NCBI RefSeq assembly: GCF_963537195.1
Contig: NZ_CAUTEG010000003.1
Location: 1,890-65,889, forward strand
DNA length: 64,000 nucleotides
Direction: 5' to 3'
DNA from: Oribacterium sinus
GTDB taxonomy: Bacteria; Bacillota; Clostridia; Lachnospirales; Lachnospiraceae
The first letter of the stretch is position 1. Each line of letters opens with the position of its first letter. The notes under the pieces were generated by a model that made no database searches, had not been told where the DNA came from, and saw nothing but the letters and a program-made list of their open reading frames with translations. This document shows positions 11,881-60,155 of the stretch, in pieces. The translations under genes were made by a program, and so were the position numbers.

Positions 11881-12217
11881 GGTTTTCTAAAGGATAGGGA
11901 TGAAATGAGTGGTAATCTAAGCCCGATACTTGCAAAATCTGATGAAGTGAAGAACTGTAAAAATCAATATGTGAAGCGAATAATGCAGTATGGGTCTATA
12001 ATAGGGGCAATCTGAGCCCGTCAGTACTTACTGAAAGCGAGCAAAGCGAAGCTTGAAGTTAGTACTGCTACGAAGGCGAAGTTAGCGGGAGCGTGCCACG
12101 ATTATAGACCCATACTGCATTTGAGCGCATCCTTATGATAAGTACAGTCCTTCAATACATTGGATTAGGCTAGCGAAAGCGTGCCACGAATTTCATCCCT
12201 ATCCTAATTAGAAAACC
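11881..12217. repeat. composite (nested) rod-like hairpin repeat, units A and B
   Basis: Outer arms 11881-11906 and 12190-12217 are complementary. Inner unit 11982-12121 has perfect 21-bp arms. Core boxes GGGGCAATCTGAGCCCG and GTTAGCGGGAGCGTGCC are present. Confidence 0.85.
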
Positions 12218-12223
12218 GTAAAT

Positions 12224-13399
12224 TTATGAATTCGCCTTCTTTGCTTCCCCTCTTTCTATCATCCGATCCACCTGTAACTTAATCAAACCGGCGATGGGGG
12301 CTGCCAGGAAGATTCCCAAAACTCCCCCCACTGCGCCGCCGATAATTAAAGAGATCATTACCAGTAGAGGATGGATATCGATACTGTTGGAAAGCAGTCT
12401 GGGGTTAATCACATTTCCATCAACGGTCTGAATCGCAAACAGGGCTAAGACAGCCGGTAATAATTTAGAAAAATCCCCGTAAAGAGTACACACTAAAATG
12501 GTTGTTCCATAGGCCACAAAGGGACCCACATAGGGTATTAGATTTCCGATTCCGGTAAGAATTCCTATGGCTACGGCATAGCGTACCCCTATAAGACTTA
12601 GGCTAAAACTAACCAAAATAGCCATAATGATGCCGTCAATCATCTGTCCACGGATATAACCGGAAAAGGCTCTATCCGCATCCTTTAGAAATCCGCGAAA
12701 GGCTAAAACTCTCTTTTCCCCCAAGATCAGGCGAAAAATTCTTTCCCAATATAGCGCAATCTTTACCCCATCTGCCAGAAAATAAATAGAAAAAATAATA
12801 CCAAAGAGCAGAGTGCCTATCAGGCTTCCCATATTTCCCACGGAGGATATGAAATTACTGCCCAGGTTTTGTACAAAGCTTAAAAGCTTTGCTAAAAAAG
12901 TTCGTATTCCCTCCTGCAAATCATTTCCCGCAATAGGAATCTCTGAAACTCTTTGGTTCAAATCCTCATAAAAACTTTTTAAAAGAAGCAGTAGGCTCTC
13001 CAATCCCTTGGCAAAATCTTCTCCCTGAATCAGCTGAATATTTTTGGTCAGGACGGATACAAAAAGAGAGGCAAGCAGTACCAGGGAAAGTAAAATCAAG
13101 AGATAGCAAAGCAGAATGCCCAGGTTTCTCCGAAGCTTCTCTTTCTTCTGAAAAAGAGGAATTTTCCCCAATACTCTCTCCAGCAAAGAACAGAGAGGAC
13201 TGAACAAATACGCCAAAGCAAATCCCAAGAGCAAAGGAGAAGTCACTTGGGACAGCCAGGAAAAGTGCCTTGTCCATAATGAGGGAATCCCTTCCAGATG
13301 ATCCACCAAACGGCTTCCCAGATGATACAGGAGGGCCGTCAGCAATACATATACCGAAATCATCAGGTATTTTTTATTCCATAAATCTTTCCAATTCAT
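12224..13399 (-). CDS. AI-2E family transporter (UPF0118/PerM)
   Basis: 391-aa polytopic protein with family-typical topology and a C-terminal GLIKL segment. Confidence 0.85.
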   Translation of the reverse strand: MNWKDLWNKKYLMISVYVLLTALLYHLGSRLVDHLEGIPSLWTRHFSWLSQVTSPLLLGFALAYLFSPLCSLLERVLGKIPLFQKKEKLRRNLGILLCYLLILLSLVLLASLFVSVLTKNIQLIQGEDFAKGLESLLLLLKSFYEDLNQRVSEIPIAGNDLQEGIRTFLAKLLSFVQNLGSNFISSVGNMGSLIGTLLFGIIFSIYFLADGVKIALYWERIFRLILGEKRVLAFRGFLKDADRAFSGYIRGQMIDGIIMAILVSFSLSLIGVRYAVAIGILTGIGNLIPYVGPFVAYGTTILVCTLYGDFSKLLPAVLALFAIQTVDGNVINPRLLSNSIDIHPLLVMISLIIGGAVGGVLGIFLAAPIAGLIKLQVDRMIERGEAKKANS

Positions 13400-13501
13400 T
13401 TCTTTACTTCCCTACTCTTCTACTATCTTTGCTTTAACCGCAGTTATTGCCCTGACCGGTTGTTTTACTTTCATCGTTGTCTTTATACTCGCTACTCTTC
13501 C

Positions 13502-14428
13502 TTATCTTGTCCGAACAAAGATTCTGCCGTTTGCCTTTGGCACATGTCCTGCTCCTACAAAGAATACTAAGGTCAGAATGGTTACCACATAGGGAATCAT
13601 GGAAAGCAAGTGAGGAGATACCATATTTCCGGATCCAAGCAATGCACGAAGACCGTTACACAGTCCGAAAATCAGGCAGCCCAGGAAGGTTCCCTGGGGA
13701 GTGAATTTTCCGAAAATCACCGCCGCAATGGCGATAAATCCCTGTCCCACAATAACGGAGGGGCGGAACTGGGATACGGTAGCCAAGGTCACAAAGGCTC
13801 CTCCCAGGCCGGACAAAAAGCCGGAAAGAATCACCGCAATGTAGCGAACCTTATAGACATTGATTCCCAAGGTTTCACAGGCCCAGGGGTGTTCTCCTGC
13901 TGCCCGGAGCCGCATACCGTAACGGGTTTTAAAGAAAATAAACCAAAGCAAAAGCACCAAAAGAAAGCTAAGATAAGCCACGGAATAGGTGCTTACCACA
14001 TTGTACAGGAAGGAACCTGAAGCAAACTTCCCTTCAAACATCTTCGGAAGCTTTGCGGATAAATCCAAAGCCGGTGTGTCCGAAGAATTGTCAAAAATCG
14101 CCTTGCAAAGGAAAACTGCAAAGCCCGGTCCGACAAAGTTAATGGCCGTTCCCGCAATGGTTTGATCCGCATGAAGGGACACACAAACCACCGCATGAAT
14201 CAAACCAAGAAGGGCTCCGGCACATCCTCCCGCAAAAAATCCCAGCCATCCGTTTCCGGTAAAATAGGCCACACAGGCTCCTACAAAGGCGCCCAGAGTC
14301 ATCATTCCTTCGATTCCGATATTTACCACACCGGAACGCTCGGAGCAACAAGAACCAAGCCCTGCCAAGAGGAGGGGTGGCGTAGAAATCAAAACCGCAT
14401 TTAACAGTAATCCCAGATCATTCAGCAT
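13502..14428 (-). CDS. ABC transporter permease (BMP/nucleoside-type system)
   Basis: 308 aa with an ERSGVVNIGIEGMM motif. Overlaps the upstream permease. Confidence 0.9.
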   Translation of the reverse strand: MLNDLGLLLNAVLISTPPLLLAGLGSCCSERSGVVNIGIEGMMTLGAFVGACVAYFTGNGWLGFFAGGCAGALLGLIHAVVCVSLHADQTIAGTAINFVGPGFAVFLCKAIFDNSSDTPALDLSAKLPKMFEGKFASGSFLYNVVSTYSVAYLSFLLVLLLWFIFFKTRYGMRLRAAGEHPWACETLGINVYKVRYIAVILSGFLSGLGGAFVTLATVSQFRPSVIVGQGFIAIAAVIFGKFTPQGTFLGCLIFGLCNGLRALLGSGNMVSPHLLSMIPYVVTILTLVFFVGAGHVPKANGRIFVRTR

Positions 14429-15491
14429 GGCTCTCTCCCTTCTTTTGGAATCCTCTCTGTACCAGATTTTTAATCACCGGCGTGATGGCGATGAAAATGA
14501 TGATGGTTCCCATGATAATGCTTACCACTTCCGCAGGAACATCCACCGTTGTTAATTTGTTTCCGCCATACTTCATGGCACCATAGAAAAGACCAGAGAA
14601 AATGCAGCCTAGGGGATGGGTTCCTCCAATCAGCGCCACCGTAATGCCCTGGAAGCCATAGCCCTCCTGAGCGGCAAACATGGAGACACGCTCAGACATA
14701 CCCAGGATTTGCACTGCTCCACCAAGACCTGCCAGAATACCGGATAAGGACATAGACAAAAGGAAAACTCTCTTGGAATTGATTCCCCCATATTCCGCAG
14801 CACTGCGGGAATAGCCCACCGCCCGAAGCTGATAGCCAAAAGTGGTTTTGCTCAGAATGAACCAGATCAGAAAGGCAAAAAGCAAAGCCAAGGGTACGCC
14901 GGCATGAAGCTCCGCTCCCCCCGCAAAGGGGATCAAAGCCTGGGGAATCTTCATGGAGGCGGTCGCTAAAATATTCTTACTGGCCTCTGCTCCCTGGTCG
15001 GTATGAATCGTCTTTAAATTCACCACATAGTTGGAAAAATAGAAAGCAATCCAGTTAAACATAATATAGGAAAGCACCTCATTGATACCCTTTTTCACCT
15101 TGAGAAGGCCTACCAAAAAACCCCAAAAAGCGCCGGCAAGAGCCGCTACCACAAGGCAGAGAAGCACATGGAGGGGCGCAGGCAAAGGAAATAAAATCCC
15201 CACCACAACAGCTGCCAAACTGCCCATCACAAACTGACCCTCTGCGCCAATATTAAAAATTCCGGTACGGAAGGAGAAAGCAACGGACAGACCTGTGAAA
15301 ATCAGGGGTGCTCCGTAAATGATGCTGTAAAACATAAACTTAGGCTTACCAAAAACACCCTGATACAATTTTCCGTAGGCCTTCACCGGGGAAACCCCGA
15401 TGGCCTGCAATAAAACAGCCCCTACCAAAAAGCCGATGGCGATGGAAAGAAGGGTGTAAAGCAAGGAACTTTTTAATATTTTCTCTTTCAT
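14418..15491 (-). CDS. ABC transporter permease (BMP/nucleoside-type system)
   Basis: 357 aa with FNIGAEGQ and a typical partner-permease layout. Confidence 0.9.
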   Translation of the reverse strand: MKEKILKSSLLYTLLSIAIGFLVGAVLLQAIGVSPVKAYGKLYQGVFGKPKFMFYSIIYGAPLIFTGLSVAFSFRTGIFNIGAEGQFVMGSLAAVVVGILFPLPAPLHVLLCLVVAALAGAFWGFLVGLLKVKKGINEVLSYIMFNWIAFYFSNYVVNLKTIHTDQGAEASKNILATASMKIPQALIPFAGGAELHAGVPLALLFAFLIWFILSKTTFGYQLRAVGYSRSAAEYGGINSKRVFLLSMSLSGILAGLGGAVQILGMSERVSMFAAQEGYGFQGITVALIGGTHPLGCIFSGLFYGAMKYGGNKLTTVDVPAEVVSIIMGTIIIFIAITPVIKNLVQRGFQKKGESHAE

Positions 15492-15493
15492 AC

Positions 15494-17146
15494 TTACTCC
15501 TTTCCTCCTGCCATATATAGTCCCAAGGTATACTCATCCGCCTCATTTCCGGCGAAGCTCTTCTGAATATTTCCGGAGAAAATAACGCCGATTCTATCAG
15601 ACAAGCCCATAACCTCTTCCAACTCAAAGGAAATCAAGAGAATTCCCCTGCCCTTATTTCTTTGTTCCACCAGATATTTATGCACAAACTCAATGGCTCC
15701 CACATCCAAACCTCTGGTGGGGTTAAAGGCAATGAGGAGCGACTTGTCATTTTCCACCTCTCTGGCAATAATCACCTTCTGCTGATTTCCGCCGGAAAGC
15801 TGTCCTGCTGCACGGCTTTCGCAGCCCTTCGGACGAATGTCAAATTTCTCAATCATCCTGGAGGCATGCTCTTCAATAGCCTTCTTCTGTAAAATTCCTC
15901 CCTTAGAGTAGGGCGCTTCCCCATAATTTTGTAAAATCAGGTTCTCCGCTACGGAGAAGTCCAGTACCAGTCCATGCTTCTGCCGATCCTCCGGAATACT
16001 GGAAAGGCCTGCATCAAAGATTTCTCTGGGGCTTTTATGGAAAATGTCCTTTCCTAAAAGCTGAATTTCTCCCTCTGTGGCCTGAGCCAGTCCGGTTAAG
16101 ATTTCCACAAGCTCAGACTGCCCGTTTCCGTCAATGCCGGCAAGTCCCAGAATTTCTCCGGCTCTTACCTCCAGATTTAGCCCCTTTAGGATTTCCACCC
16201 CTCTATAGTCCTTGGCATGGAGATTTTTCACGGAAAGCACCACTTCTCCCGGCTCCTGAGTCTTCTTTTCCACTACTCGATTCACTTTTCTTCCCACCAT
16301 CATGGCTGCCAAATCGTCCTCCGAGCAGGAACATACATCCACGGTATCAATGTACTTTCCCTGTCGGATAATCATACATTTATGGGCAATGCATTTGATT
16401 TCCTTTAATTTGTGGGTAATAATCAGGATGGACTTTCCGGCCTTGGTCAAATGGGAAATAATTTCCATTAACTCATCAATTTCCTGGGGAGTAAGGGAGG
16501 CGGTAGGCTCGTCTAAAATCAAAATGTCCGCACCACGGTACAAAACCTTCAGAATCTCCACTCTTTGCTGCATGCCTACGCTGATGTCTTCCACCTTGGC
16601 ATCCACATCCACCATCAAATGGTACTGTTCGGAAAGCTCCCGAATCCTTTTCTTCGCTCCGTTTAAGTCCACAGTAAGCCCCTGCATGGGCTCCGCCCCC
16701 AGAATAATATTTTCCGCAACGGTAAAGGGAGGGATCAGCATAAAGTGCTGATGCACCATACCGATTCCCAAGGAAATAGCCTTTTCCGGGCTGTCCATCT
16801 CTACCTTTTGTCCACGAACCAGAATTTCTCCGGAGCTTGGGCGAAGCATGCCGTAGAGAATATTCATAAGAGTAGACTTTCCCGCTCCGTTTTCCCCTAA
16901 AATCGCAAGAACTTCTCCCTTATGAAGCTTTAATTGCACATGGTCATTGGCCACGAAATCTCCAAAGCGCTTCACAATGTCCCGCATTTCAATAACCGGT
17001 TCCTGCTCCCCGATTCTCAAAGAGCTTTCGGCTTTTTCGGAATCCTTCGCTTCTCCGGCATTTTCAAAATTTCCGGAATCCTGCCCCTCTCCTGTTACCG
17101 CATCCGGAGTCCCTTCCCATGCCTTTGTCTCTTCATCTCTTCCCAT
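15494..17146 (-). CDS. ABC transporter ATP-binding protein (two fused ABC domains)
   Basis: GENGAGKST Walker A, an LSVGMQQR signature, and a second domain with LSGGNQQK. Has an acidic N-terminal extension. Confidence 0.92.
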   Translation of the reverse strand: MGRDEETKAWEGTPDAVTGEGQDSGNFENAGEAKDSEKAESSLRIGEQEPVIEMRDIVKRFGDFVANDHVQLKLHKGEVLAILGENGAGKSTLMNILYGMLRPSSGEILVRGQKVEMDSPEKAISLGIGMVHQHFMLIPPFTVAENIILGAEPMQGLTVDLNGAKKRIRELSEQYHLMVDVDAKVEDISVGMQQRVEILKVLYRGADILILDEPTASLTPQEIDELMEIISHLTKAGKSILIITHKLKEIKCIAHKCMIIRQGKYIDTVDVCSCSEDDLAAMMVGRKVNRVVEKKTQEPGEVVLSVKNLHAKDYRGVEILKGLNLEVRAGEILGLAGIDGNGQSELVEILTGLAQATEGEIQLLGKDIFHKSPREIFDAGLSSIPEDRQKHGLVLDFSVAENLILQNYGEAPYSKGGILQKKAIEEHASRMIEKFDIRPKGCESRAAGQLSGGNQQKVIIAREVENDKSLLIAFNPTRGLDVGAIEFVHKYLVEQRNKGRGILLISFELEEVMGLSDRIGVIFSGNIQKSFAGNEADEYTLGLYMAGGKE

Positions 17147-17188
17147 CTTCCAAATGCTCTCCTTCCTCGATTTCCCTTAAGTTCCTAA

Positions 17189-18115
17189 TTAAATCAAGAG
17201 TATGTCCTGCATCCCTTCCTGTTCGGCCAGCTCCTTCAAAGCCTTCAGTTCTTCCTCACCGGGACTCTCAAACTGCCTATATTGCTCCCGTACCCCAAAC
17301 TCCCGGTAGGCAATGATTTTGTAGCGGATTTTCTGTCCCTTCCTTACATAAGAAGACAACTCCCTGGATACCTTCTCCACCGTATCCTTTCCGGAAAAAA
17401 GTCCCGGCACCACTACCGTCCTTACCTCAAAGAGTTTATCATATTCTGCTAAAATTCGCATATTTTTTAGAATTTCCTCATTGGAAAACCCGGTAACCCT
17501 TTTATGCTCTTCCCCATTATAAGCTTTAATATCCAACATCACCCCGTCAATGTAGGGCAATAAATCTTTTTCGTCCTTGGAAAAATCATAATAGCCGTTG
17601 GAATCCAGTAAAAATCCTATGCCCCTCTTTTTACAGAGCATCCCCAATTCTCGTAAGAATTCCGGATAAAGGGTACACTCTCCCCCGGACACGGTGATTC
17701 CCCGGATAAAGGGAAGGTTCTTGGAAGCCTCCTGAAACACTTCCTTCGCACTCATCCGGCGGATTCTGGGGCTGGCATTGTGTGTGCAAGCATGAATACA
17801 TTGGTCACAGCCGATACATTTTTCCGGAGAAAAGGCTACCCTTCCTTCTTCCCAATAAATGGCCTTGGTGGGACAGCCCGGAATGCAGTCTCCGCAGTGA
17901 ATACACAGGGCTCTGGTTTCCGGATTATGGCAGTATTTACAGTCCAGATTGCAGGCCTGTAAAAATATTGCAGTTCGATTTCCCGGACCGTCCACAGAGC
18001 TGAAGGGGATAATCTTGTTTACCGGGACTTTTATTTCTGCCTGTCCCCCCTCGACTCTACTTTCCGGCTTTTCTCTATCTTCTTGCTGCTCTTTCTTTAC
18101 TGCTAATTCTTGCAT
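17189..18115 (-). CDS. yjjW: YjjW-family glycyl-radical enzyme activase (radical SAM)
   Basis: CNLDCKYC radical-SAM cluster plus two ferredoxin-like CxxCxxCxxxC motifs. Confidence 0.87.
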   Translation of the reverse strand: MQELAVKKEQQEDREKPESRVEGGQAEIKVPVNKIIPFSSVDGPGNRTAIFLQACNLDCKYCHNPETRALCIHCGDCIPGCPTKAIYWEEGRVAFSPEKCIGCDQCIHACTHNASPRIRRMSAKEVFQEASKNLPFIRGITVSGGECTLYPEFLRELGMLCKKRGIGFLLDSNGYYDFSKDEKDLLPYIDGVMLDIKAYNGEEHKRVTGFSNEEILKNMRILAEYDKLFEVRTVVVPGLFSGKDTVEKVSRELSSYVRKGQKIRYKIIAYREFGVREQYRQFESPGEEELKALKELAEQEGMQDILLI

Positions 18116-18146
18116 GGTACGAAATTCCTCTCTTCTCCCAGTATAA

Positions 18147-18183
18147 CGAAAAAGAGGAAGCTTGAATACGCCTCCTCTTTCGT
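18147..18183 (-). terminator. internal hairpin/partial terminator between the GRE and its activase
   Basis: Minus strand reads AGAGGAGGC-GTATTCAA-GCTTCCTCT followed by TTTTCGTT. Confidence 0.45.
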
Positions 18184-18209
18184 AAAAACATAATACAATC
18201 CATGAATGT

Positions 18210-19757
18210 TTAGCGAACCTTACGCTCCAAAATCTTTCCGTTTTCGGCTGCGCCCAAACCTAAAGCCACGGTGTCCTGCAAAACACTCTTTCCTTGCTTC
18301 AGCTTGTCCATCTCGGATTTCTTCACCAGATATCCGGTAATACGAATCACGTCGGAATCGTTGGAATAGAAGGAAAGGTAGCGAAGATTCTTTTGGAAAG
18401 CCCCCTTCATAATATCCAAAACATACTCCGGATTTTGGTGAATGGTTCTGTCAATGGGGAAAAGGTCTCCTGTTCCGGAGGGGAAGTAATGGTGGAAATG
18501 AGACAGAACTTCCATTTGGTCTGCCAGATTCTCCGGTTCCTCTCCGATGGGGATTCTGGTTCCCGGGCTGATTTCCACATCTGTGGAGATACCTACCTGG
18601 GCATGGAGGAGGAAATGTCCGTTGCTGACCTCACAATAAGGATTCTTGTGGGCTTCGTTAAAGGCAGAAATGCAATCCATAATCTCTACCCCAAGCTCCG
18701 TTGCCTCCTTGCTGTGGCCAAAGCGACAATCACCCTTTCCTTCCTTTTCCAGAAGAATATTGACCGCCTCGGCAAGTCCCACCAAGCCGAACATAGCGGA
18801 AAAACGGTCTCTATGGATAAAGCCTTCTTTCGCCAGGAAGTTATTCTCGAAAAAGCCGGACTCTTCCACGATAAAACGAATTCGCTCATCCATATAGCGC
18901 ACACAAAGGTCCATGATATAGGGAAGCTCTTTCTCCAGAAAATCCTTTCTGTCCTTGGCTCTCTTGGCAATATTACTTAAGATCAGGCGAACAAGGGTAT
19001 AGGCTCCCCCTCCGTATGCCAAGCCGTTGTAGCAAGAAGCAATCACATAATTTCCGGAAAAATCCTTGGAATACATCCGGTGGTTGCAAAAGCTTGGCTT
19101 GGCACTGGCCATAGCACAACGAATGGCTTCAATGGCAAAGTCATCCTCGGTAAGCTCCTCATCATATTTCAAGGTAAGATTGGGGACTGCATCCTTGGTT
19201 TCCGCCATAGCCCGAAGCAAAAGTCTTCCGGCCTTGGTAGCCTTGGGGCCAATGTTGGCATGGGCGAAGGAGTCCAGAATCGTTCTGTCCATCTGGATAC
19301 AGAAAAGCTTAATCATTTTAAAGGCAAGCTCTTCGTCCATATCCTGCACAAAGGGATCCAGCAGGGTGTCCAGCTGTCCCACATAAACCGGATAATTGGT
19401 TACGGATGGAACATGCTTATAAAAGATTTGCAGAGCGTTAATGGCTTCATACAAATCCTTGGGAGGCTCTACCTGCAAGAAAGCGGAGCCCTCCCGAAAG
19501 AATTTCTCATAATCCGGGATGATATAGCGGGGACGCATAGGAGCATTTCCTTCGAAAAGGTCGCAAATGCACTGCTTCTCCGGCTCACAACGTAAAACTT
19601 CCAAAAGTCCTTCGGGAAGGTTCAGAACAGAGAGAAGGGAGTCCGCATGATTGGCCATTGTGGCTACCTTCTGCTCGTGGGTCAAGCTCTTTGACTTTAC
19701 TGTTTCCAGCATAGCCTGCCGAGCCGCTTCAACTTTTTCCATGGATATTTCTTTCAT
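18210..19757 (-). CDS. yjjI: YjjI-family glycine radical enzyme (DUF3029)
   Basis: 515 aa. The C-terminal RITGY matches the R-[VI]-x-G-[FY] glycyl-radical motif. Paired with a YjjW-type activase. Confidence 0.82.
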   Translation of the reverse strand: MKEISMEKVEAARQAMLETVKSKSLTHEQKVATMANHADSLLSVLNLPEGLLEVLRCEPEKQCICDLFEGNAPMRPRYIIPDYEKFFREGSAFLQVEPPKDLYEAINALQIFYKHVPSVTNYPVYVGQLDTLLDPFVQDMDEELAFKMIKLFCIQMDRTILDSFAHANIGPKATKAGRLLLRAMAETKDAVPNLTLKYDEELTEDDFAIEAIRCAMASAKPSFCNHRMYSKDFSGNYVIASCYNGLAYGGGAYTLVRLILSNIAKRAKDRKDFLEKELPYIMDLCVRYMDERIRFIVEESGFFENNFLAKEGFIHRDRFSAMFGLVGLAEAVNILLEKEGKGDCRFGHSKEATELGVEIMDCISAFNEAHKNPYCEVSNGHFLLHAQVGISTDVEISPGTRIPIGEEPENLADQMEVLSHFHHYFPSGTGDLFPIDRTIHQNPEYVLDIMKGAFQKNLRYLSFYSNDSDVIRITGYLVKKSEMDKLKQGKSVLQDTVALGLGAAENGKILERKVR

Positions 19758-19827
19758 TTTCTGTCCTTTCTATTTCCCTGTCTTACTCTTTCAGAAAATT
19801 CACATCCCTGTAGTATTTTCTCTGTAC

Positions 19828-20958
19828 TTAGTTGTCTAACTCGTAAACATCTCCGTACTTTGCTTCAAAGTCTGCCTTGTTGTTTGGCACCTTCAGCTCG
19901 CCGGAAACAATCTTCTTCTTTATTTCTTCTACTTCTTTAACCACTGCAGGATCAATGTTCTCCGTACCGGGAGCAAGGTCTACACCTTCATCAGCCAAAG
20001 TATAGGTCTTTACACCGCCCTTGATGTTGCCTTCCACCAATTCCTTGCTTACATCAAATACCGCATTGTCTACTCTCTTCATAGCAGAGGTCAAAATGGT
20101 CTCAGGAGCGATAGAGCTCTGATCACTGTCTACACCGATAGCCCAGATTTTAGCTTCCTTACAAGCATCGATTACGCCCAGTCCGGTTCCGCCGGCTACC
20201 TGGAAAATAACATCAGCTCCATTGGTTACCATGTTGTTTGCTGCAGTCTTTCCTGCTGCAGTATCTGCAAAGGAGTTGGCATTGGCCTGTAAAACCTTAG
20301 CACTTGCATTGGCATCCAAAACACCTGCTGTATAGCCGTATCCGAACTGGTTCATCATGTCGGTTGCCATTCCCAAAACGATACCTACGGTATTCTTCTT
20401 AGTGGTCTTTCCTGCAACATATCCTGCAAGGTAAGAAACCTGTGCCTGCTCGAACATCAGGGAAGTAACATTGGAAACATCCGCTAAGGAAGCATCATCC
20501 ACGATGGCAAACTTTACATCCGGGTTGGAAGCGGACTCTGCCTTTAAAGCATCTGCCAAAGCATAACCGATACAAATAATTAAATCATAGTCCTCATCCA
20601 CAAAGGTCTCGATATTGGGCTTATAGTCCGCATCGGTCTTAGACTCCAGATACTTTGCCTCAATACCAAGCTCCTTCTGTGCTCTCTGTAATCCTTCCCA
20701 AGCAGACTGGTTGAAGGAACCGTCATTTACTCCTCCTACGTCGGTAACAATACCAACCTTCAGACCCTTGCCGGAAGAAGCATCCTTCTTTTCCGACTTG
20801 CTCTCCTCCACCTTCTCGGAACCGGCCTCTGTACCCTTCTCGGAACCCTGCTCGGTAGCCTTTGCACTTTCTTTCTTCTCTCCGCCGGAAGCACCGCAAG
20901 CCGCTAAGCTGAACGCCATGGTCAAAGCCAGGAATGCCGCAAAGATTCTTTTCTTCAT
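19828..20958 (-). CDS. BMP-family ABC transporter substrate-binding lipoprotein
   Basis: Lipobox LAACG. DVGGVNDGSFNQSAWEG is typical of the Med/PnrA/TmpC family. Confidence 0.92.
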   Translation of the reverse strand: MKKRIFAAFLALTMAFSLAACGASGGEKKESAKATEQGSEKGTEAGSEKVEESKSEKKDASSGKGLKVGIVTDVGGVNDGSFNQSAWEGLQRAQKELGIEAKYLESKTDADYKPNIETFVDEDYDLIICIGYALADALKAESASNPDVKFAIVDDASLADVSNVTSLMFEQAQVSYLAGYVAGKTTKKNTVGIVLGMATDMMNQFGYGYTAGVLDANASAKVLQANANSFADTAAGKTAANNMVTNGADVIFQVAGGTGLGVIDACKEAKIWAIGVDSDQSSIAPETILTSAMKRVDNAVFDVSKELVEGNIKGGVKTYTLADEGVDLAPGTENIDPAVVKEVEEIKKKIVSGELKVPNNKADFEAKYGDVYELDN

Positions 20959-21028
20959 TTCTCGTCCTCCTTAGATGAAGTCTTTTCTATTCGCCGTTTC
21001 CCTCCGAAGCCCTCGGCAAATAATAAAA

Positions 21029-21082
21029 GACTTGTCACATGTACTCTCCCATTATAGGGAAGAAAGAATACGGTGACAAGTC
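21029..21082 (-). promoter_or_regulatory. sigma-A promoter bracketed by a perfect 10-bp inverted repeat (candidate operator)
   Basis: Minus strand has TTGTCA (21079-21074), a 17-nt spacer, then TATAAT (21056-21051). The inverted repeat is GACTTGTCAC (21029-21038) with GTGACAAGTC (21073-21082). Confidence 0.7.
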
Positions 21083-21203
21083 AGTTCCTTGCTTTATTTC
21101 ATCTTCCTGTACGCAAAAGATTCCTGCCGAAATTCACACTTAAAAATAATGAATTTAATAACAAAAAATCAAGCTCTTTCTCCTGCAAAAGAAATATCGG
21201 ATT

Positions 21204-22421
21204 TTATTCCGGAAAATGAGAAAGCAAAAACTCTAAAAATCCTTTCAGGTTCAGATTTCCTTCCCATAAACGTCCCAGAATATAATTTAGCAGACTAAAG
21301 CCCACGAAGCAGAATCCGAAAAACAGGAATAAGCTTAGGGCGAAAACGCTGTATAAAAAGCAGATTTTCAGCACCTTTCCGCTTTGGCCGTACTCTATTT
21401 TCAGGGCTGTATAATCCAACACAATGCCCAAGGGTATGCCCAAAAGAAACAGAAACAAAGAAAATAGGGGAAAGCCCAAAAGCAGGGAAAAGAAGGATAG
21501 ACTTGCTAAAAGGTAGAGCGCCAATCTTCCCCTGGTAAAGAGATAAAACAAGGAGGAAAAGCTTCTTCCCTCTGAAAAAAACAGAACCAGGAAGAAGGGT
21601 AAGAGCAAAAAGCTTAAGGCATAGAGCAGGGAAAATTGAAGAGAAGCTGCCGGATTTCCGTTGGAAAGGTATAAGCCGATGAAAAACATCAGAAGCAAGC
21701 TGATAGTAAAAAGCAGAGAGGTACTTTTATGTCCTGTCTTTTCCTTCTCCTTCAGCATGGCCTCTTCCGGATCCGCCAAATACTCCCGGATTTCTCCCCG
21801 TAAAAGCTTCGGTGCCTGCAAAAATTCCTTGATTGCTCCGGAGGAAGGAAGAGCCGGAGAAAAGAAGGAGGAGCGAGCCTCCACAAAGACCGGAATCTCT
21901 CTTCTTTCGGAAGCTTCTTCGATAACAACGGTCTCCGATTCTTCTTCTAAATGAATCGATTTTTCCTCTTCCGAATCCCTCAAATTCTCCTGTTCTAAAG
22001 CTTCCTCTTCCGAATCCCTCTGTTTCTCTTGTTCTACAGCGTCCTGCTCTTGTTCCCCATACTCTTCCGAAGCTTCTAAAGGCGTCTTATCTTCTTTTAC
22101 GCTCTGTTCCTCTAAGTTCGGTTCTCTTTTTCTCTCCTGCTCTTCCTGTAAAGCCTTTTCCAAAGCCGCAATCCTTGCCTCCAGAGCCTGCTCTCTTTCC
22201 TGCCTTTGCCGCTTTTTCTCCGCCTTCTTTTCCGCTTTTTTAGCTAAGCTTTTTTCATGCTTAGCTAAAACTGTTTTTCCTTCCTGCTTTTCTCCTTTTT
22301 TCTTCCCCATTACACTGAAAATCCCTTCTTCCGCTCTTTTCCTAATTTCTTCTGCCCCATATTGTAGCCTAGTTCTTTTGTCTTGGAAAGAGCTTCCTCC
22401 GCCTAATCCCGAATTCCCCAT
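21204..22421 (-). CDS. hypothetical protein: E/K-rich N-terminal region plus polytopic membrane C-terminal domain
   Basis: 405-aa ORF with no family recognised. The start codon is uncertain. Confidence 0.6.
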   Translation of the reverse strand: MGNSGLGGGSSFQDKRTRLQYGAEEIRKRAEEGIFSVMGKKKGEKQEGKTVLAKHEKSLAKKAEKKAEKKRQRQEREQALEARIAALEKALQEEQERKREPNLEEQSVKEDKTPLEASEEYGEQEQDAVEQEKQRDSEEEALEQENLRDSEEEKSIHLEEESETVVIEEASERREIPVFVEARSSFFSPALPSSGAIKEFLQAPKLLRGEIREYLADPEEAMLKEKEKTGHKSTSLLFTISLLLMFFIGLYLSNGNPAASLQFSLLYALSFLLLPFFLVLFFSEGRSFSSLFYLFTRGRLALYLLASLSFFSLLLGFPLFSLFLFLLGIPLGIVLDYTALKIEYGQSGKVLKICFLYSVFALSLFLFFGFCFVGFSLLNYILGRLWEGNLNLKGFLEFLLSHFPE

Positions 22422-22531
22422 TCTTCTCTTGACTCAATTTTTCCGCTCAAAGGAATAGGGAATAGAAGATTAAGAAGCAAGTTTTCATTCCTTTCGCTTT
22501 CCAAACAGCAATTCATCCATTTCAACAAAAA

Positions 22532-22590
22532 TGTGGATAAGTCCTTTGTACATTTTCCCAAAAATGGGATTTTAAGAGGACTTATCCACA
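22532..22590. promoter_or_regulatory. inverted pair of perfect DnaA boxes
   Basis: TGTGGATAA at 22532-22540 and TTATCCACA at 22582-22590. Both sit inside the 14-bp inverted repeat TGTGGATAAGTCCT / AGGACTTATCCACA. Confidence 0.7.
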
Positions 22591-22716
22591 AAAATTACAC
22601 TTTTACACATTGCCAAGCTCTTTTTCTGCCTTTTTGCTTTCGATAAATTCAAAAAATCCGAAAAAAAAGTTACGATATTCTTACTTTCCCCATTCTATTT
22701 CTTTTAAGAGCGACTC

Positions 22717-23481
22717 TTAAGAAAGAAGATTCTGATAATTTCCCAGAAAGCTTTTCATTCTTTCCTGCTCTGAAGAAAAGACCTCCTCCGGACTTCCCTC
22801 GCAGATTACTTCTCCATCCGCCATAAAAAGGATGCGGTCGGAAATATCTCTGGCAAAGGTCATTTCATGGGTAACAATCACCATGGCCATCTTCTGTCCC
22901 TTTAGGGAGCGAATCACGGAAAGCACTTCTCCCGTAAGCTCCGGATCCAGTGCAGAGGTTGGCTCATCAAAAAATAAAATCTTCGGCTCTAAGGCCAGGG
23001 CTCTGGCAATGGCCACCCTTTGCTTTTGTCCACCGGAGAGGGAATAAGGATACTGCTCCGCCTTTTCCAAAAGCCCCATTTGAGAAAGCACTGCTTTCGC
23101 TTTCTCTTCCGCTTCTTCCTTTGTTTTTTTCTGCACGTGAATCAGGGGATCCATCACATTTTTCACAACCGTCCAATGGGGAAAAAGATTGAAGTTCTGA
23201 AACACCAGGCCGAAAAGCTTCTTGGCCTCTTCCTTTTCTTCCTTCGTTGCCTGTTTTTTCTGCCCTTCCGTCAACGAAAAAATCGCCTTTCCGTCGTAGA
23301 AAAGCTCTCCTCCCTCCGCCTTTTCCAGGAGGGTGGCAATGCGAAGCAATGTGGACTTTCCGGAGCCGGAGGGTCCGATGATGCTGAGCACCTCTCCCTC
23401 CTTACAGGACAGAGAAATTCCTTTCAGAATTTCCTCTCCTGAAAATGCCTTTCGGATATTTTTCATTTCTAAAATCGCCAT
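22717..23481 (-). CDS. amino acid ABC transporter ATP-binding protein
   Basis: GPSGSGKST, LSGGQKQR and FDEPTSALD motifs. Confidence 0.93.
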   Translation of the reverse strand: MAILEMKNIRKAFSGEEILKGISLSCKEGEVLSIIGPSGSGKSTLLRIATLLEKAEGGELFYDGKAIFSLTEGQKKQATKEEKEEAKKLFGLVFQNFNLFPHWTVVKNVMDPLIHVQKKTKEEAEEKAKAVLSQMGLLEKAEQYPYSLSGGQKQRVAIARALALEPKILFFDEPTSALDPELTGEVLSVIRSLKGQKMAMVIVTHEMTFARDISDRILFMADGEVICEGSPEEVFSSEQERMKSFLGNYQNLLS

Positions 23482-49919: not shown

Positions 49920-52412
49920 CTACTTCTTCAAATATCCGTAAAAAGCATTATGCACCTTCTCATATCTGGCGATAGCTTCTTCTCTACTGATGTTTCTGGG
50001 TATGCTGCTTCCTCCTAGGGTATATACCGTAATAAAGCTATTGTTGTAGCCGCTGATTAACTCCCATTGATCCTCCATACGAATCATCAGAGGATAGCCC
50101 TTGCCCACATAGTAGAGGGCAGCGTGCAGATCCATACCATAAAGATTTAGAAGCACGCCGTTATCATAGTCCATAGCTCTTCGAAGCTCCGGGATTTGGG
50201 AAACAAAATTGCTGATTGCCTCTTCCTGAATCTTCAGGTTAGCGGTATTGGGACGGTCTGTTCTATTCCAAACAATCCGCTCCTTCTGATCCACCACATA
50301 ACCGAACTGGTCATAAATCTTCTTATAGGCCGCCTCCATGGTGGAGAACTCTCCCTGATAATGCCCCAGGCTATAGGCGGAGAAAAGTATATTCTCTTCC
50401 TTGGTTTCTCCCGGAAGCTCAATAGAGCCTGCCTTTTCAATAGAGAACTTTTCCGGGTAATGCAGACTAAACTGGCTAACCGCCTTACCTACCATGGGAA
50501 GGTACTGCAGTTTTCCGATATTTCCCAGAACCTTGGATTCCAAGGCAATCTTTCTTTCATCTTTGATTTCTTTGTTGGAAAGCAAACTGTCCTTCCCCAC
50601 ATACTGATATTCCCCGTCCTGCAGCTGGTATTCATCAAATCGAAGCTGATTTCCTTCCAGACTGAAATTTGCAAAATACAGGCCATCCTTTTTGTAGGAA
50701 AGCTTGGTTTTCATGTCTTCCCCAACTATGCGAATCTCCGATACCGGCACTTCTCCCTGAGGATTCCAAATCTGATCCTTATCACTATCCTGTAAGCCGT
50801 AGAGGAAATCCTCCCCCAGAAAGCCGATTACCTTCAGTCGTTTTCCATCTTCGGAAATGCTCAAATTCTTATCTCCGTGGAGATTTCTAAAGGCAATTTC
50901 TCTGTGCAATTCTCCGTCATTGTTCTTTTCTCCGTAAGCAATAAATTGCTTACTGCTACTGGAGGCAAAATCATTTTCCGAAAGTCCGGTAGCCAGCGTA
51001 ATGACCTCGAAGCTGTTGGTGTCCACCCCATAGATACTGCCGGCAAAGAAAATGTAGAACATCCTATTGTCCGCATAGTAGGAAAGATTTTGAATATTTT
51101 CCTCCAGCTTTTCCTTACTGGCCTTTAGAGGCAGGAAGAAATTCTCCACCACCGTATTTTCCGAATTGTCATAGGTATAAAAGACAATGCCGGTATAGCC
51201 CTCGTGTCGACCTCTTCGAATATAGCCGTATACCAGAAAATCCACATCCCCGTTGGTGTCCACACTCAAAATATGAATGCCGTGGGTAAAGCTCTCCTTC
51301 TCCACCGACTTCTCCCCCTCGTAATAGGAGAAAATCCGGTTCATATTGCCCTTTCCCTCCCCGTCGGCACGGTAAAGGGTATTCTTATCGGTAAAGGCAT
51401 AGAAATTTTTAGTAGCGGATTGCAGGGCCTCAATATCGCTCTTTTCCCCCACACCCAGTAAAATCTTTTTATCCTTGTAACGATAATTCTGTCCGTCAAA
51501 AAGCTCCTTGGTTCTTCGGTCAAAGTCCATCAGGAAAATTCTTTGGGGATCATATCGCATCACATAGTTATCTTCATTAAAGAAACGGTGCACATTACCG
51601 TCCTGATCCGTGGCTCTGGAGGCATACTGGATTTGCACTAATGCCATGGTACCGTCCAGCTCCTTCAAACGAATCTCCGGCTCCCCGTCCATTTCCATGC
51701 CGCTGTCTCCCCAGGTTATCTGCTGGAAGGAGGAATGCAGATTCACATGGGCAAGAGAACTGTTATCCATGGTATCATCACTTTCCAGATAAGTGCTAAG
51801 GCTCTTGGCCTCCGATTTGGAAAAGCTCTTTCTGGTAAAATCCTCCGCAAGACTCAGAACTTCCTGTCCCATATCCTCCTTCCCCAGTAAAACGCGGGTA
51901 TAGTAATAGACGCTGCTTTCTCCCAGGTCCAGTCGTAGACGAAGAAGGTACTCCTTTCCTTCCTTCATCAAGTTTTGGATAGGAAGGATAATGTGTACCC
52001 TTCCCCCTTCCTCCTGTAAGCTTCCTTCCTGGTCCTTTTCCAAAAGCTCCGTCCCATCCAGGGAACGAATATCATAATGCACAGACTTAGGGGCGGACTT
52101 TCCCTCCTCCAAAATCAACTCACACTGCCGGTTTTCCGGAAGTAAGGTCAGGCTGTCCCGCACAAAGACATCATCCATTTCCTGCAAATAGCCGTAGAGA
52201 GGATTGATTTCTTTTCCGGAGGAAAGCACATGAAGCACCGGTAATTTGCTTTTTCCCATGTTGGCATAAATTCTATTGTTTTGATCCATGGAACGATAAG
52301 AATGGAAGAAATAAAAAAGCAGAGCGACAAAAAAAATGCCGCCCAATACCAAAGCTCTGCTTCTTCTTTTATTCCAAAACTTCTGTTTACTTTCGCCTAG
52401 TCGTTTTAACAA
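49920..52412 (-). CDS. large membrane-anchored hypothetical protein (830 aa)
   Basis: One N-terminal TM segment and a long extracytoplasmic region. No family recognised. Confidence 0.7.
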   Translation of the reverse strand: MLKRLGESKQKFWNKRRSRALVLGGIFFVALLFYFFHSYRSMDQNNRIYANMGKSKLPVLHVLSSGKEINPLYGYLQEMDDVFVRDSLTLLPENRQCELILEEGKSAPKSVHYDIRSLDGTELLEKDQEGSLQEEGGRVHIILPIQNLMKEGKEYLLRLRLDLGESSVYYYTRVLLGKEDMGQEVLSLAEDFTRKSFSKSEAKSLSTYLESDDTMDNSSLAHVNLHSSFQQITWGDSGMEMDGEPEIRLKELDGTMALVQIQYASRATDQDGNVHRFFNEDNYVMRYDPQRIFLMDFDRRTKELFDGQNYRYKDKKILLGVGEKSDIEALQSATKNFYAFTDKNTLYRADGEGKGNMNRIFSYYEGEKSVEKESFTHGIHILSVDTNGDVDFLVYGYIRRGRHEGYTGIVFYTYDNSENTVVENFFLPLKASKEKLEENIQNLSYYADNRMFYIFFAGSIYGVDTNSFEVITLATGLSENDFASSSSKQFIAYGEKNNDGELHREIAFRNLHGDKNLSISEDGKRLKVIGFLGEDFLYGLQDSDKDQIWNPQGEVPVSEIRIVGEDMKTKLSYKKDGLYFANFSLEGNQLRFDEYQLQDGEYQYVGKDSLLSNKEIKDERKIALESKVLGNIGKLQYLPMVGKAVSQFSLHYPEKFSIEKAGSIELPGETKEENILFSAYSLGHYQGEFSTMEAAYKKIYDQFGYVVDQKERIVWNRTDRPNTANLKIQEEAISNFVSQIPELRRAMDYDNGVLLNLYGMDLHAALYYVGKGYPLMIRMEDQWELISGYNNSFITVYTLGGSSIPRNISREEAIARYEKVHNAFYGYLKK

Positions 52413-56127: not shown

Positions 56128-56874
56128 CTAACTAAGAGGCGACTTAGCCGGAGTTCCCGCCTTTCTAGGATATTTTTTTCCGCTAGGCTCTACTTTTTGA
56201 ATCAAAAGCATAGCCCTTCCCATATCGGTTTCCGGCAGGGTATAGATTTTCTTCTCCACACATTTTCCTCCTAAAAGGAAAATGGCTTTCTTTCCCTGCT
56301 CCAATTCTTCTTCCACTTCTCTGCCCTTTAAGGCCAGAAAATAGCCTCCCGGCTTCACAAAGGGAAGGTCATACTCACTGAGGGTGGCAAGATTTGCCAC
56401 TGCCCTGGAAACTACCAAATCGTACTGTTCCCGCAAGCTCTTATCATGTCCCAGGTCCTCAGCCCGACCGTGATAAAATCTCACCCCTTCCAAACCAAGG
56501 CTTTCCACCAGCTCTTCCAAAAAACGAATCCGCTTTTGCAAAGAGTCACTCAAAGAAAGCTGAATACTTGGAAAGGCAATTTTTAGAACAAGTCCGGGAA
56601 ATCCTGCTCCTGTTCCCACATCCATTACCGACTTTCCCTCTATCCATTCTGAAAATGTTTCACGTGAAACATTCATTTGACAAATAGCCAGACAATCCAC
56701 AAAGTGCTTAACAATGACCTCTTCCTCTTCCGTAATGGCGGTAAGATTCATCACCTTATTTTTTTCCACCAGAATCTGATAATATTGATAAAACTGTAAA
56801 AGCTGTTGTTCTGTTAAAGAAAGTCCTAAGCTCTCTGTTAAATGGGAAAGCTTCTCTCGAAAAAATTCGGTCAT
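56128..56874 (-). CDS. rsmG: 16S rRNA (guanine527-N7)-methyltransferase
   Basis: DVGTGAGFPG SAM motif and NVSRET. Confidence 0.93.
   Translation of the reverse strand: MTEFFREKLSHLTESLGLSLTEQQLLQFYQYYQILVEKNKVMNLTAITEEEEVIVKHFVDCLAICQMNVSRETFSEWIEGKSVMDVGTGAGFPGLVLKIAFPSIQLSLSDSLQKRIRFLEELVESLGLEGVRFYHGRAEDLGHDKSLREQYDLVVSRAVANLATLSEYDLPFVKPGGYFLALKGREVEEELEQGKKAIFLLGGKCVEKKIYTLPETDMGRAMLLIQKVEPSGKKYPRKAGTPAKSPLS
56656..56671. promoter_or_regulatory. parS site inside rsmG
   Basis: TGTTTCACGTGAAACA, encoding the MNVSRETF segment. Confidence 0.85.
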
Positions 56875-58772: not shown

Positions 58773-58784
58773 ATTCCCTCTTTA

Positions 58785-60155
58785 CTATTTTCCCATGCAA
58801 AACTTTGCAAAAATCTCATTAATCAAATCCTCGGAAACATCCTCTCCCAGAATTCTTCCTAAGGCACTGTATGCCCCCATTAAATCTATGCTTAAGAAAT
58901 CCTCGGACAATTCCAGACGGATTCCCTCCAAGACCAATTCCAAAGCGGACTTTGCCTCTTCCAATGCTGCAATCTGTCGTTCACTATGAATATAAGTTTC
59001 CGTGGAAAAAGAAAGACTTCCGGTGTAGAAAAGCTCTTCCAGCTTCTGGCCAAGCTCCTCAATACCCCTTCCCTCTTTGGCAGAAATAGGAATCACAGGA
59101 AAACCGGTAGCCTTTTCCAGCTCTTCTTTTTGTAAAATGCTTTCCTTATCCATTTTATTTAGAAGCACCAGGACCTTTTTTCCCTCTAAAAGGGATAAAA
59201 TCTTTCGGTCCTCCTCCTCTAAAGGAAGGCTTCCGTCCAAAACCAAAAGAACGCAGTCCGCCTTTTCAATCCCTTCCTTTGCCCGATTCACACCGATTTC
59301 TTCCACAATATCCTCTGTTTCCCGGATTCCTGCGGTATCCATCAAATGAAGAGAAAGGGAGCCGATACGAATATCCTCCTCCACCGTATCTCTGGTGGTT
59401 CCCGGAATATTGCTTACAATAGCCTTATCCGCCTTAACCAGACAATTTAAAAGAGAAGACTTTCCCGCATTGGGCTTTCCCACAATAACGGTTTGAATTC
59501 CCTCCTTTAAGAGTTTTCCTTCCCTTTGGTGCTTCAAAAGCTCTGAAATTTCAGAGAGAATCCCTTCCACATGGGCTTGACACTGCTCGGAAAAGCCCTC
59601 CAAAGAAATATGCTCCGGATCATCCAAAGCCGCTTCAATAAAGGCGGTATCCTCCAGAATTCTGCTCCGCATTCCCTTGATTTTCTCCTTCAGTGAACCC
59701 TGTAGGAGGGAAAGGGAGGAGCGAATGCTGTCCTCGCTTTTAGCAGAAATTAAATCCGCCACTGCCTCCGCCTGAGAAAGATCGATACGCCCATTTAAAA
59801 AGGCTCGTTTACTGAACTCTCCCGGCTCCGCCGGTCTTGCTCCGGCCTTGAGAGTGGCCTGAAAAACCTTTTGCATCAAAAGGATTCCGCCGTGACAGTT
59901 GATTTCCACAGTATCTTCTCCGGTAAAGGATTTGGGTGCTAAAAAAGTGGAAACCAAAACCTCATCAATTTCCTTTTCCCCGTCAAAAACAAAGCCATAG
60001 CGAATCCGGTGGCTTTCCCTGATATCTAAGGGTTTTCCCCCCTTAGTTCTTAAAATTTTTCCGGCAATTTCCACAGCCTGATTTCCGCTAATCCGGATAA
60101 TGCCGATTCCGCTTTCTACTAATGCGGTGGCAATTCCGCTAATGGTATTTTCCAA
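58785..60155 (-). CDS. mnmE: tRNA modification GTPase
   Basis: GKPNAGKSS G1 motif, DTAG, NKMD, and the C-terminal CMGK. Confidence 0.96.
   Translation of the reverse strand: MENTISGIATALVESGIGIIRISGNQAVEIAGKILRTKGGKPLDIRESHRIRYGFVFDGEKEIDEVLVSTFLAPKSFTGEDTVEINCHGGILLMQKVFQATLKAGARPAEPGEFSKRAFLNGRIDLSQAEAVADLISAKSEDSIRSSLSLLQGSLKEKIKGMRSRILEDTAFIEAALDDPEHISLEGFSEQCQAHVEGILSEISELLKHQREGKLLKEGIQTVIVGKPNAGKSSLLNCLVKADKAIVSNIPGTTRDTVEEDIRIGSLSLHLMDTAGIRETEDIVEEIGVNRAKEGIEKADCVLLVLDGSLPLEEEDRKILSLLEGKKVLVLLNKMDKESILQKEELEKATGFPVIPISAKEGRGIEELGQKLEELFYTGSLSFSTETYIHSERQIAALEEAKSALELVLEGIRLELSEDFLSIDLMGAYSALGRILGEDVSEDLINEIFAKFCMGK

Follow-up and report, generated by a model that had tools for sequence, protein, structure and literature searches.

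In the 64,000-nucleotide stretch of Oribacterium sinus DNA analysed here (the window), an oxygen-sensitive glycyl-radical enzyme (GRE) of the YjjI family and its YjjW activase are encoded among the genes of an ATP-binding cassette (ABC) importer of the BMP/PnrA type. On the minus strand, the listing of open reading frames (ORFs) gave the gene order BMP lipoprotein, YjjI GRE, YjjW activase, double ABC ATPase, permease and permease. We consider it probable, at a likelihood of roughly 0.6, that this cluster is a conserved operon of anaerobic Clostridia that couples a nucleoside importer to YjjI and YjjW, and that the substrate of the GRE is a nucleoside or is derived from one. The substrate, and the reaction suggested below, are what we infer from the families of the genes and from their linkage, both of which were observed directly. 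As a sequence, this locus is an unremarkable representative of known families, and its arrangement is common among Clostridia; the value of the finding lies in the functional lead that it offers on an orphan family of radical enzymes.

To our knowledge, YjjI may be the last GRE of E. coli without a known reaction. In the literature it was still described in 2026 as an uncharacterised putative glycyl-radical enzyme, as a preliminary description of the window had supposed, and a review of the superfamily from June 2026 does not mention it. In a 2011 study a role in nitrogen metabolism was guessed for E. coli yjjI from co-expression. Searches of open-access papers and bioRxiv preprints returned no function for YjjI, and nothing relevant was found there for DUF3029 or for GREs in connection with nucleosides or deoxyribose. 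The association of this orphan family with nucleoside uptake and catabolism, which is strong and repeated, is unreported in the open-access papers and bioRxiv preprints searched.

The operon and its conservation

The genes were assigned to families by Pfam and NCBIfam profile searches. The first encodes a BMP/PnrA-family substrate-binding lipoprotein of 376 aa (19828..20958, minus strand like all six; PF02608, E 3e-75), with the lipobox LAAC and the lipobox cysteine at Cys21. It is followed after 70 nt by the gene of the YjjI-family glycyl-radical enzyme (515 aa, 18210..19757), which scored 690.3 bits with TIGR04040 against a cut-off of 498.3 and 725.7 bits with PF11230 against 23, and then, 94 nt downstream, by the gene of the YjjW-family radical S-adenosylmethionine (SAM) activase (308 aa, 17189..18115), which scored 350.9 bits with TIGR04041 against a cut-off of 250.2 and contains Radical_SAM and Fer4_7 domains. 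A gap of 42 nt leads to the double-domain ABC ATPase (550 aa, 15494..17146, with two ABC_tran stretches in Pfam) and one of 2 nt to a permease of the BPD_transp_2 family (357 aa, 14418..15491; PF02653, E 2e-45), whose gene overlaps by 11 nt with that of the second BPD_transp_2 permease (308 aa, 13502..14428; PF02653, E 1e-41). All parts of a BMP-type importer, namely the Bmp lipoprotein, the fused double ATPase and two BPD_transp_2 permeases, are present in the window by their Pfam matches. The gene order, coordinates and short gaps of the preliminary description were reproduced exactly in the ORF listing and in the Pfam and NCBIfam searches.

YjjI forms a large family, with at least 3540 protein clusters returned in one search, and it is abundant among Clostridia of the gut, rumen and mouth. 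When one genome was scanned for each bacterial species, at least 590 YjjI loci came to light, of which the 80 closest (54-74% identity) were kept; these came from Lachnospiraceae, Oscillospiraceae, Clostridium and relatives, and their neighbours were located by tblastn with the window proteins. The BMP gene was directly upstream of YjjI and on the same strand in 52 of the 80 loci, YjjW was directly downstream in 73, and an ABC ATPase was found within 1.8 kb of YjjI in 58. Altogether 63 of the 80 loci were linked to the transporter, including two on short contigs that end early. The linkage was also retained where the genes had been rearranged: udp was placed between BMP and YjjI in two loci (L027, L038), udp and deoB lay between yjjI and yjjW in another (L036, 8657-19026), a complete BMP-ABC set stood ahead of YjjI in two more (L035, L040), and the order BMP-ABC-YjjI-YjjW-deoD was also seen. 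The six-gene arrangement is conserved and not a product of chance, since the gene order recurs in dozens of species of Clostridia from gut and rumen.

The linkage was examined in the reverse direction as well, starting from BMP orthologues in metagenome contigs, where 21 loci had enough flanking sequence to be judged. YjjI was present in every one of them: it was embedded in the transporter genes in 16, udp lay between in one, and YjjI-YjjW was appended after the permeases in four. Six further contigs carried BMP-ABC genes; five of these end too early, and the sixth (L116), which ends shortly after, has deoD behind a complete BMP-ABC set. The neighbourhood survey that the preliminary description had called for therefore revealed a recurrent link with BMP/ABC genes, from either side. 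Two variants of the arrangement were observed in passing. In L035 (5091-20746) YjjI is flanked by two BMP-ABC sets, with YjjW lying within the second, and in L026, L034 and L037 the GRE and ATPase genes have no activase gene between them.

Ligand of the transporter

PnrA of T. pallidum, pneumococcal PnrA, and BmpD and BmpA of B. burgdorferi are all nucleoside-binding proteins. Their importers share with the window the binding-protein family, the double ATPase and the two BPD_transp_2 permeases; unlike in the window, no radical enzyme and activase have been described within these operons. The BMP protein of the window keeps motif stretches in common with pneumococcal PnrA, and its best local match in the PDB was 7x0r, the Lbp protein of Acetivibrio thermocellus (Clostridium thermocellum) (452 bits, residues 46-376). 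In 2022, Yan and colleagues solved the structure of Lbp at 1.5 Å and showed that co-purified density in the protein fits guanosine and neither laminaribiose nor cellobiose; in the same work, an A. thermocellus mutant in transporter L grew normally on laminaribiose (PMC9601137). The ligand of the BMP protein may be a nucleoside, as supposed in the preliminary description, for its nearest solved relative, the product of an orthologous operon, held guanosine-like density.

Transporter L of A. thermocellus, published as lbp, hp, rsam, nbd, msd, msd (PMC9601137), consists of the same six genes in the same order as the window, and its proteins are 55-68% identical to those of the window by tblastn. 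The gene published as hp is YjjI-like, and rsam is a YjjW-type activase. The whole locus reads PNP_UDP_1, Bmp (Lbp), YjjI-like, radical SAM with a ferredoxin insert, ABC ATPase, two permeases, cytidine deaminase and DeoC. In a transcriptome study the six genes CLO1313_RS11885-910 were handled as one operon and changed together. The two loci differ in that genes for a PNP/Udp-type phosphorylase, cytidine deaminase and DeoC flank the one of A. thermocellus but are missing from the window, and in that the GRE and activase genes of A. thermocellus are 2 nt apart and free of any hairpin, whereas in the window they are separated by 94 nt containing a hairpin. The A. thermocellus locus has already been drawn in the literature as a sugar transporter, with the GRE not identified in those papers (PMC9601137 among them). 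On our results, this "laminaribiose transporter" locus may instead encode an importer of nucleosides, with a radical enzyme among its genes.

For each of the four transporter parts, the NCBIfam model that scored best came from the "putative B6 ABC transporter" set, in every case below its cut-off. Assignment as a vitamin B6 transporter (NF047927-NF047930) was rejected, the scores of 113, 458, 155 and 180 bits being far under the respective cut-offs of 400, 670, 400 and 465.

Nucleoside genes near YjjI

The ORFs of all 80 loci were clustered, and the link to nucleoside catabolism was tested on cluster representatives, among which udp/deoD, cdd, add, deoC, deoB, punA, udk and pdp passed the curated NCBIfam cut-offs. 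Counted as neighbours on the same strand, phosphorylases of the Udp/DeoD type were found in 24 of the 80 loci, cytidine deaminase in 23, DeoC in 17, adenosine deaminase in 15 and DeoB in 14, followed by PunA (5), uridine kinase (4) and pyrimidine-nucleoside phosphorylase (3). At least one nucleoside-catabolic gene lay within 10 kb in about 40 of the 63 transporter-linked loci. A gene for a Crp/Fnr-family regulator, a candidate regulator of the cluster, was observed on the same strand near BMP-YjjI in 13 of the 80 loci (for example L008, 6636-7367).

In E. coli the yjjW-yjjI pair (b4379, b4380) is divergent from deoCABD, so that the neighbourhood named in the preliminary description was confirmed. 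The E. coli proteins are 41% (YjjI) and 38% (YjjW) identical to those of the window by tblastn and have the same invariant cysteine and glycine loops; unlike in the window, there is no BMP/ABC transporter nearby. In strain MG1655 the palindrome of the DeoR operator has a perfect match inside the yjjI coding region and a match with one mismatch in the gap between yjjI and deoC. These two matches (L001, 8665-8680 and 9264-9279) are 599 bp apart, where 0.02 matches would be expected by chance, and bracket the start of yjjI. Such a placement of operator matches suggests that E. coli yjjI may be co-regulated by DeoR. A search of the E. coli yjjI-deoC region with the FNR consensus, allowing up to one mismatch, gave no match, and the published FNR-like motif was not confirmed in this way.

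More distant relatives of YjjI were also found in nucleoside contexts. A locus whose YjjI is 42% identical (L084) contains genes for an IU-nucleoside hydrolase, a PfkB kinase, a PNP_UDP_1 phosphorylase and a major facilitator superfamily protein together with a Bmp-ABC set; in a 37%-identical one (L089) YjjI follows genes for adenosine deaminase and PfkB, and in L090 a BPD_transp_2 permease gene is directly upstream of YjjI. In L136 a BMP-type ABC set lies about 6 kb away. The distant relatives provide independent though incomplete support for the link with nucleosides. Among the close loci that lack the transporter, we observed in L074 (8629-9960) a gene for an amidohydrolase of the nucleoside/nucleobase-deaminase type directly upstream of YjjI, and in L079 and L080 (L080, 1453-3458) a pseudouridine-kinase-like gene about 1.5 kb upstream of it. 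The gene beside the latter appeared PsuG-like by eye, but no NCBIfam model matched it.

The glycyl-radical enzyme and its activase

The glycyl-radical loop RITGY of YjjI, which had been noted in the preliminary description along with the length of 515 aa, was located at residues 472-476 (18330..18344, minus strand), with the codon of Gly475 at 18333-18335. Arg472 and Gly475 are invariant, and in the predicted model the loop forms part of a beta-hairpin (470-479). It is also known that Gly465 of E. coli YjjI, the equivalent of Gly475, is labelled in vivo by a radical probe. The putative thiyl-radical cysteine is Cys242 in the Cys finger loop S241-C242-Y243-N244 (19026..19037, minus strand), which is placed at the tip of a beta-hairpin (237-247) in the model; it is the only invariant cysteine among 27 diverse members of the family. 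In total 31 residues are invariant in these 27 sequences, including Arg77, His166, Asn193, Arg257, His385, Gln387 and Arg401, and Lys220 is nearly so. Basic and polar residues of this kind would suit an anionic or polyhydroxy substrate. Since so many residues are invariant, the reaction is probably the same throughout the family and in all genomic contexts, and its substrate should then be an ordinary metabolite that can be obtained with or without an importer.

An AlphaFold model of YjjI made from the 27 sequences (pLDDT 92.3, pTM 0.92) has Cys242 and Gly475 each at the tip of its own beta-hairpin, an arrangement known from other GREs. When the model was compared with the PDB using Foldseek, the top 16 matches were all class III ribonucleotide reductases (RNRs, NrdD), with E values down to 2.7e-16; those of P. 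copri, S. thermophilus, phage T4 and T. maritima had query-normalised TM-scores of 0.6-0.74 at 12-15% identity. Dehydratases, pyruvate formate-lyase (PFL), benzylsuccinate synthase, PflD and YbiW all ranked lower, and the predicted fold of YjjI agrees with NrdD in a ten-stranded barrel with Cys and Gly finger loops. A sequence search of the PDB with YjjI returned no relative, and no YjjI structure was present there. The Pfam NRDD model gave a partial match to residues 191-370 (E 1.6e-8). Like YjjI, class III RNRs have a glycyl radical in the C-terminal region and one catalytic cysteine in a finger loop, and their substrates carry ribose; unlike them, YjjI is without an ATP-cone, a C-terminal zinc ribbon and a second conserved cysteine, the absence of the zinc ribbon following from the fact that there is no cysteine beyond residue 375.

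Assignments of YjjI to characterised enzyme classes were tried and rejected. As an NrdD it was dismissed because there is no match to the NrdD NCBIfam model, no ATP-cone, no zinc ribbon and no second invariant cysteine. A mapping of catalytic residues onto E. coli NrdD was abandoned, the alignment being too weak around the Cys loop. A PFL-type enzyme would have Cys-Cys where YjjI has the loop S-C-Y-N, and the PFL-like Pfam match was marginal (25.3 bits). For the GRE 1,2-eliminases (glycerol, propanediol and hydroxyproline dehydratases and CutC) the motif G-C-x-E requires Glu at the position of residue 244, which in YjjI is an invariant Asn. A precedent for a once-orphan GRE of E. coli is offered by PflD and YbiW (8id0, 8id7 and 8yjo among the fold matches), which act on sugar phosphates, the 1,5-anhydrohexitol 6-phosphates; these belong to a separate family of about 770-810 aa and ranked under the class III RNRs.

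In the activase, the motif CNLDCKYC (CX3CX2C) comprises Cys55, Cys59 and Cys62 (codons 17930-17953), and two ferredoxin-like groups of four cysteines follow at residues 71/74/77/81 and 100/103/106/110, so that every cysteine of the motif and of the two clusters named in the preliminary description could be located. The protein is of the PflA/PflC type with a ferredoxin insert, unlike the NrdG of class III RNR, and with the NrdG2 model it scored 78 bits against a cut-off of 131.

Proposed function and alternative explanations

On the reading that we favour, in which a nucleoside importer is coupled to YjjI and YjjW, the lipoprotein would capture a nucleoside that the two permeases and the double ATPase would import. 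Under anoxia YjjW, a radical-SAM enzyme with three Fe-S sites, would generate a radical on Gly475 of YjjI; the radical would then move from Gly475 to Cys242, which would abstract a hydrogen from the substrate. The substrate would be either the imported nucleoside or a metabolite derived from it. The preliminary description had equated the imported molecule with the substrate of the GRE, and while the recurrent link with importer and nucleoside genes supports a connection between the two, a downstream metabolite such as a pentose phosphate is another possible substrate. The conserved place of the enzyme within the importer and its independent association with deo genes and with genes for nucleoside hydrolase, deaminase and PfkB leave nucleosides, their bases and pentose phosphates as a short list of candidates. 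A reaction that proved new would add a step to the anaerobic nucleoside metabolism of the gut.

The likeliest target may be the ribosyl part, in the nucleoside itself or in ribose 1- or 5-phosphate supplied by the neighbouring phosphorylases, DeoB or PfkB kinases. We tentatively suggest that YjjI might catalyse an RNR-like or dehydratase-like loss of a ribose hydroxyl, since the contexts compared (phosphorylase with DeoB, hydrolase with PfkB, and a pseudouridine-kinase-like gene) would each supply a ribosyl unit or pentose phosphate and the fold is RNR-like; other reactions, on the base or on the sugar, are also conceivable. It is somewhat more doubtful that the product is a deoxyribose compound, formed by a new ribosyl radical chemistry in which, for example, a ribonucleoside or ribose phosphate would lose its 2'-hydroxyl. 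Such a product could be passed through DeoB and DeoC to acetaldehyde and glyceraldehyde 3-phosphate. Ribosyl deoxygenation of this kind, if true, would amount to a new anaerobic pathway in which the sugar of nucleosides is fermented; it would occur widely among gut Clostridia and also in E. coli, and would be an instance of a deoxyribose compound formed outside the ribonucleotide reductases.

Several observations weigh against a coupling of importer and enzyme. The window has no deo or other nucleoside-catabolic genes within its 64 kb, and none were found within 10 kb in its nearest relatives (L002-L006, L013, L053). BMP-type importers adjoin deo genes even where no GRE is present, so that the co-location with deo may partly reflect the transporter. 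Neighbours vary among the 17 close loci that lack a transporter, with none shared, and no clear nucleoside context was seen in the distant loci L082, L083, L087/L088, L136 and L137, while L086 was ambiguous; overall about one-fifth of the close and one-half of the sampled distant relatives have no transporter or nucleoside genes nearby. Common descent also inflates the linkage counts, as a few related families (Lachnospiraceae, Oscillospiraceae and relatives) account for most of the linked loci. The sequence similarity to NrdD is weak (hhalign probability of 59% with the E. coli enzyme), expression of the A. thermocellus operon rose on xylose in the transcriptome study, and an older study reported that Lbp binds laminaribiose at 0.13 µM. 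The concentration of linked loci in related families, the many lone YjjI-YjjW pairs amid unrelated neighbours, the lack of other nucleoside genes in the window and the 2011 study, which placed E. coli yjjI with nitrate and anaerobic genes, would all fit a history in which a single insertion, in an ancestor of these Clostridia, brought the GRE pair into an operon for nucleoside transport where it has been carried along since, the two systems sharing anaerobic or growth-phase regulation only and YjjI acting on an unrelated substrate. We regard this as unlikely, because the association persists over at least four different gene orders, and because differently arranged nucleoside contexts reappear in E. 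coli and in distant relatives, which a single frozen accident would not predict.

It might also be argued that YjjI serves salvage, as a stripped-down, nucleoside-level counterpart of class III RNR that would supply DNA synthesis with deoxy forms of imported ribonucleosides or of their phosphates. The NrdD enzymes are its nearest folds, the Pfam NRDD match is partial, the enzyme is tied to nucleoside import, and uridine kinase or PfkB kinases occur in some of the loci. Nevertheless YjjI has neither the second conserved cysteine nor the zinc ribbon and ATP-cone, the activase is not an NrdG, and the genes usually found beside it belong to catabolism (phosphorylases, deaminases and the DeoC aldolase), which leaves such a role a little less likely still. 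Import of a ligand other than a nucleoside (laminaribiose, a pentose or a B6 vitamer) on which the GRE would then act is suggested by the first report on Lbp, by the effect of xylose, by the rank of the B6 models and by other binders in the BMP family, such as the atrazine-binding protein of PDB 6pi5. It appears improbable to us, as guanosine fits the Lbp density where laminaribiose and cellobiose do not and the transporter L mutant grew on laminaribiose (PMC9601137), the B6 scores are far below cut-off, the flanking genes encode nucleoside enzymes, and the motif stretches of pneumococcal PnrA are kept in the BMP protein.

Expression signals

A sigma-70-type promoter-like site (TTGTCA, 17 nt, TATAAT; 21051..21079, minus strand) precedes the BMP gene and agrees with the consensus at 11 of 12 positions. 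A scan of positions 12000-23000 gave 15 sites against 12.2 expected from shuffles, all the others scoring 9-10 of 12, and the site is therefore the best and only strong one in these 11 kb, as had been claimed for it. Upstream of the BMP genes of relatives a -35/-10 pair occurs at the same relative position. Between the promoter and the ribosome-binding site of the BMP gene lies a long imperfect inverted repeat (20979..21032, minus strand), a leader stem-loop with a folding energy of -22.3 kcal/mol (z -1.9). Relatives carry different, non-homologous hairpins in the BMP leader, several of them with a T-run just before the ribosome-binding site. The repeat could serve as a stabiliser, an attenuator or an operator. 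A riboswitch or other known RNA in the leader or gaps was rejected, as no Rfam model matched anywhere in the window at the gathering score, and a search of 17000-21400 at E values up to 5 also gave no match.

As in PflB-PflA and other GRE pairs, the gene of the enzyme precedes that of the activase, although YjjI is about 250-300 residues shorter than PflB and other such GREs and has a single cysteine in its loop. In pfl, a hairpin 3' of the enzyme gene could yield more enzyme than activase. Between the GRE and activase genes of the window there is a terminator-like hairpin (18145..18178, minus strand) with a 9-bp stem (18178..18153) and an 8-nt loop, followed by the U-rich UUUUCGUU. The remaining intergenic gaps of the operon contain no stable structure, so the internal hairpin of the preliminary description is the sole one, albeit not significant when taken alone (z -1.3 against shuffles). 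With it, the binding protein and the GRE would probably be made in larger amounts than the activase and the membrane components. In 65 loci out of 73 the spacing of yjjI and yjjW is below 40 nt or the two genes overlap, and in six of the eight with a gap of at least 60 nt (L003, L006, L007, L053, L041, L077) strong terminator-like hairpins of unrelated sequence were found. The hairpin is thus a feature of the lineage and not of the YjjI family, since most pairs are nearly adjacent and the hairpins of gapped relatives are unrelated.

The gap between the GRE and activase genes is plastic among strains, one metagenome strain having a 65-nt insertion at 18130/18131, between the hairpin and the start of the activase gene. 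Among near-identical metagenome loci the YjjI-YjjW spacing differs by the same 65 nt, being 98 nt in L094 but 163 nt in L093, L095 and L096.

No terminator-like structure was found 3' of the last permease gene, and a gene for an AI-2E/YtvI-like transporter (12224-13399) follows on the same strand about 100 nt further on. In the absence of a terminator at this point, it may or may not be co-transcribed with the operon. The single candidate public RNA run gave two 151-nt contigs, both inside the BMP gene, and was uninformative on co-transcription.

Other observations in the window

The first 50 or so residues of the ATPase ORF form a low-complexity extension, and homology to other ATPases begins at residue 50. 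The true start may be Met54 (16985-16987), or else the extension may be a variable translated tail. Related strains hold a segment that is 72 nt shorter at 17005-17100 (91 to 19 or 94 to 22 nt) with the frame kept, and this difference in length falls within the first 50 low-complexity codons.

Directly upstream of the operon is an ORF of 405 aa (21204-22421) without a Pfam or NCBIfam match, the N-terminal half of which is charged and rich in Glu and Lys and the C-terminal half hydrophobic; homologues occupy the same position in L002, L004, L005 and L053. An ORF of 830 aa at 49920-52412 likewise had no Pfam match. The genes mnmG (gidA) and mnmE (trmE), which in Firmicutes are often near the replication origin, are located side by side at 56871-60155, and the cumulative GC skew declines steadily over the whole window.

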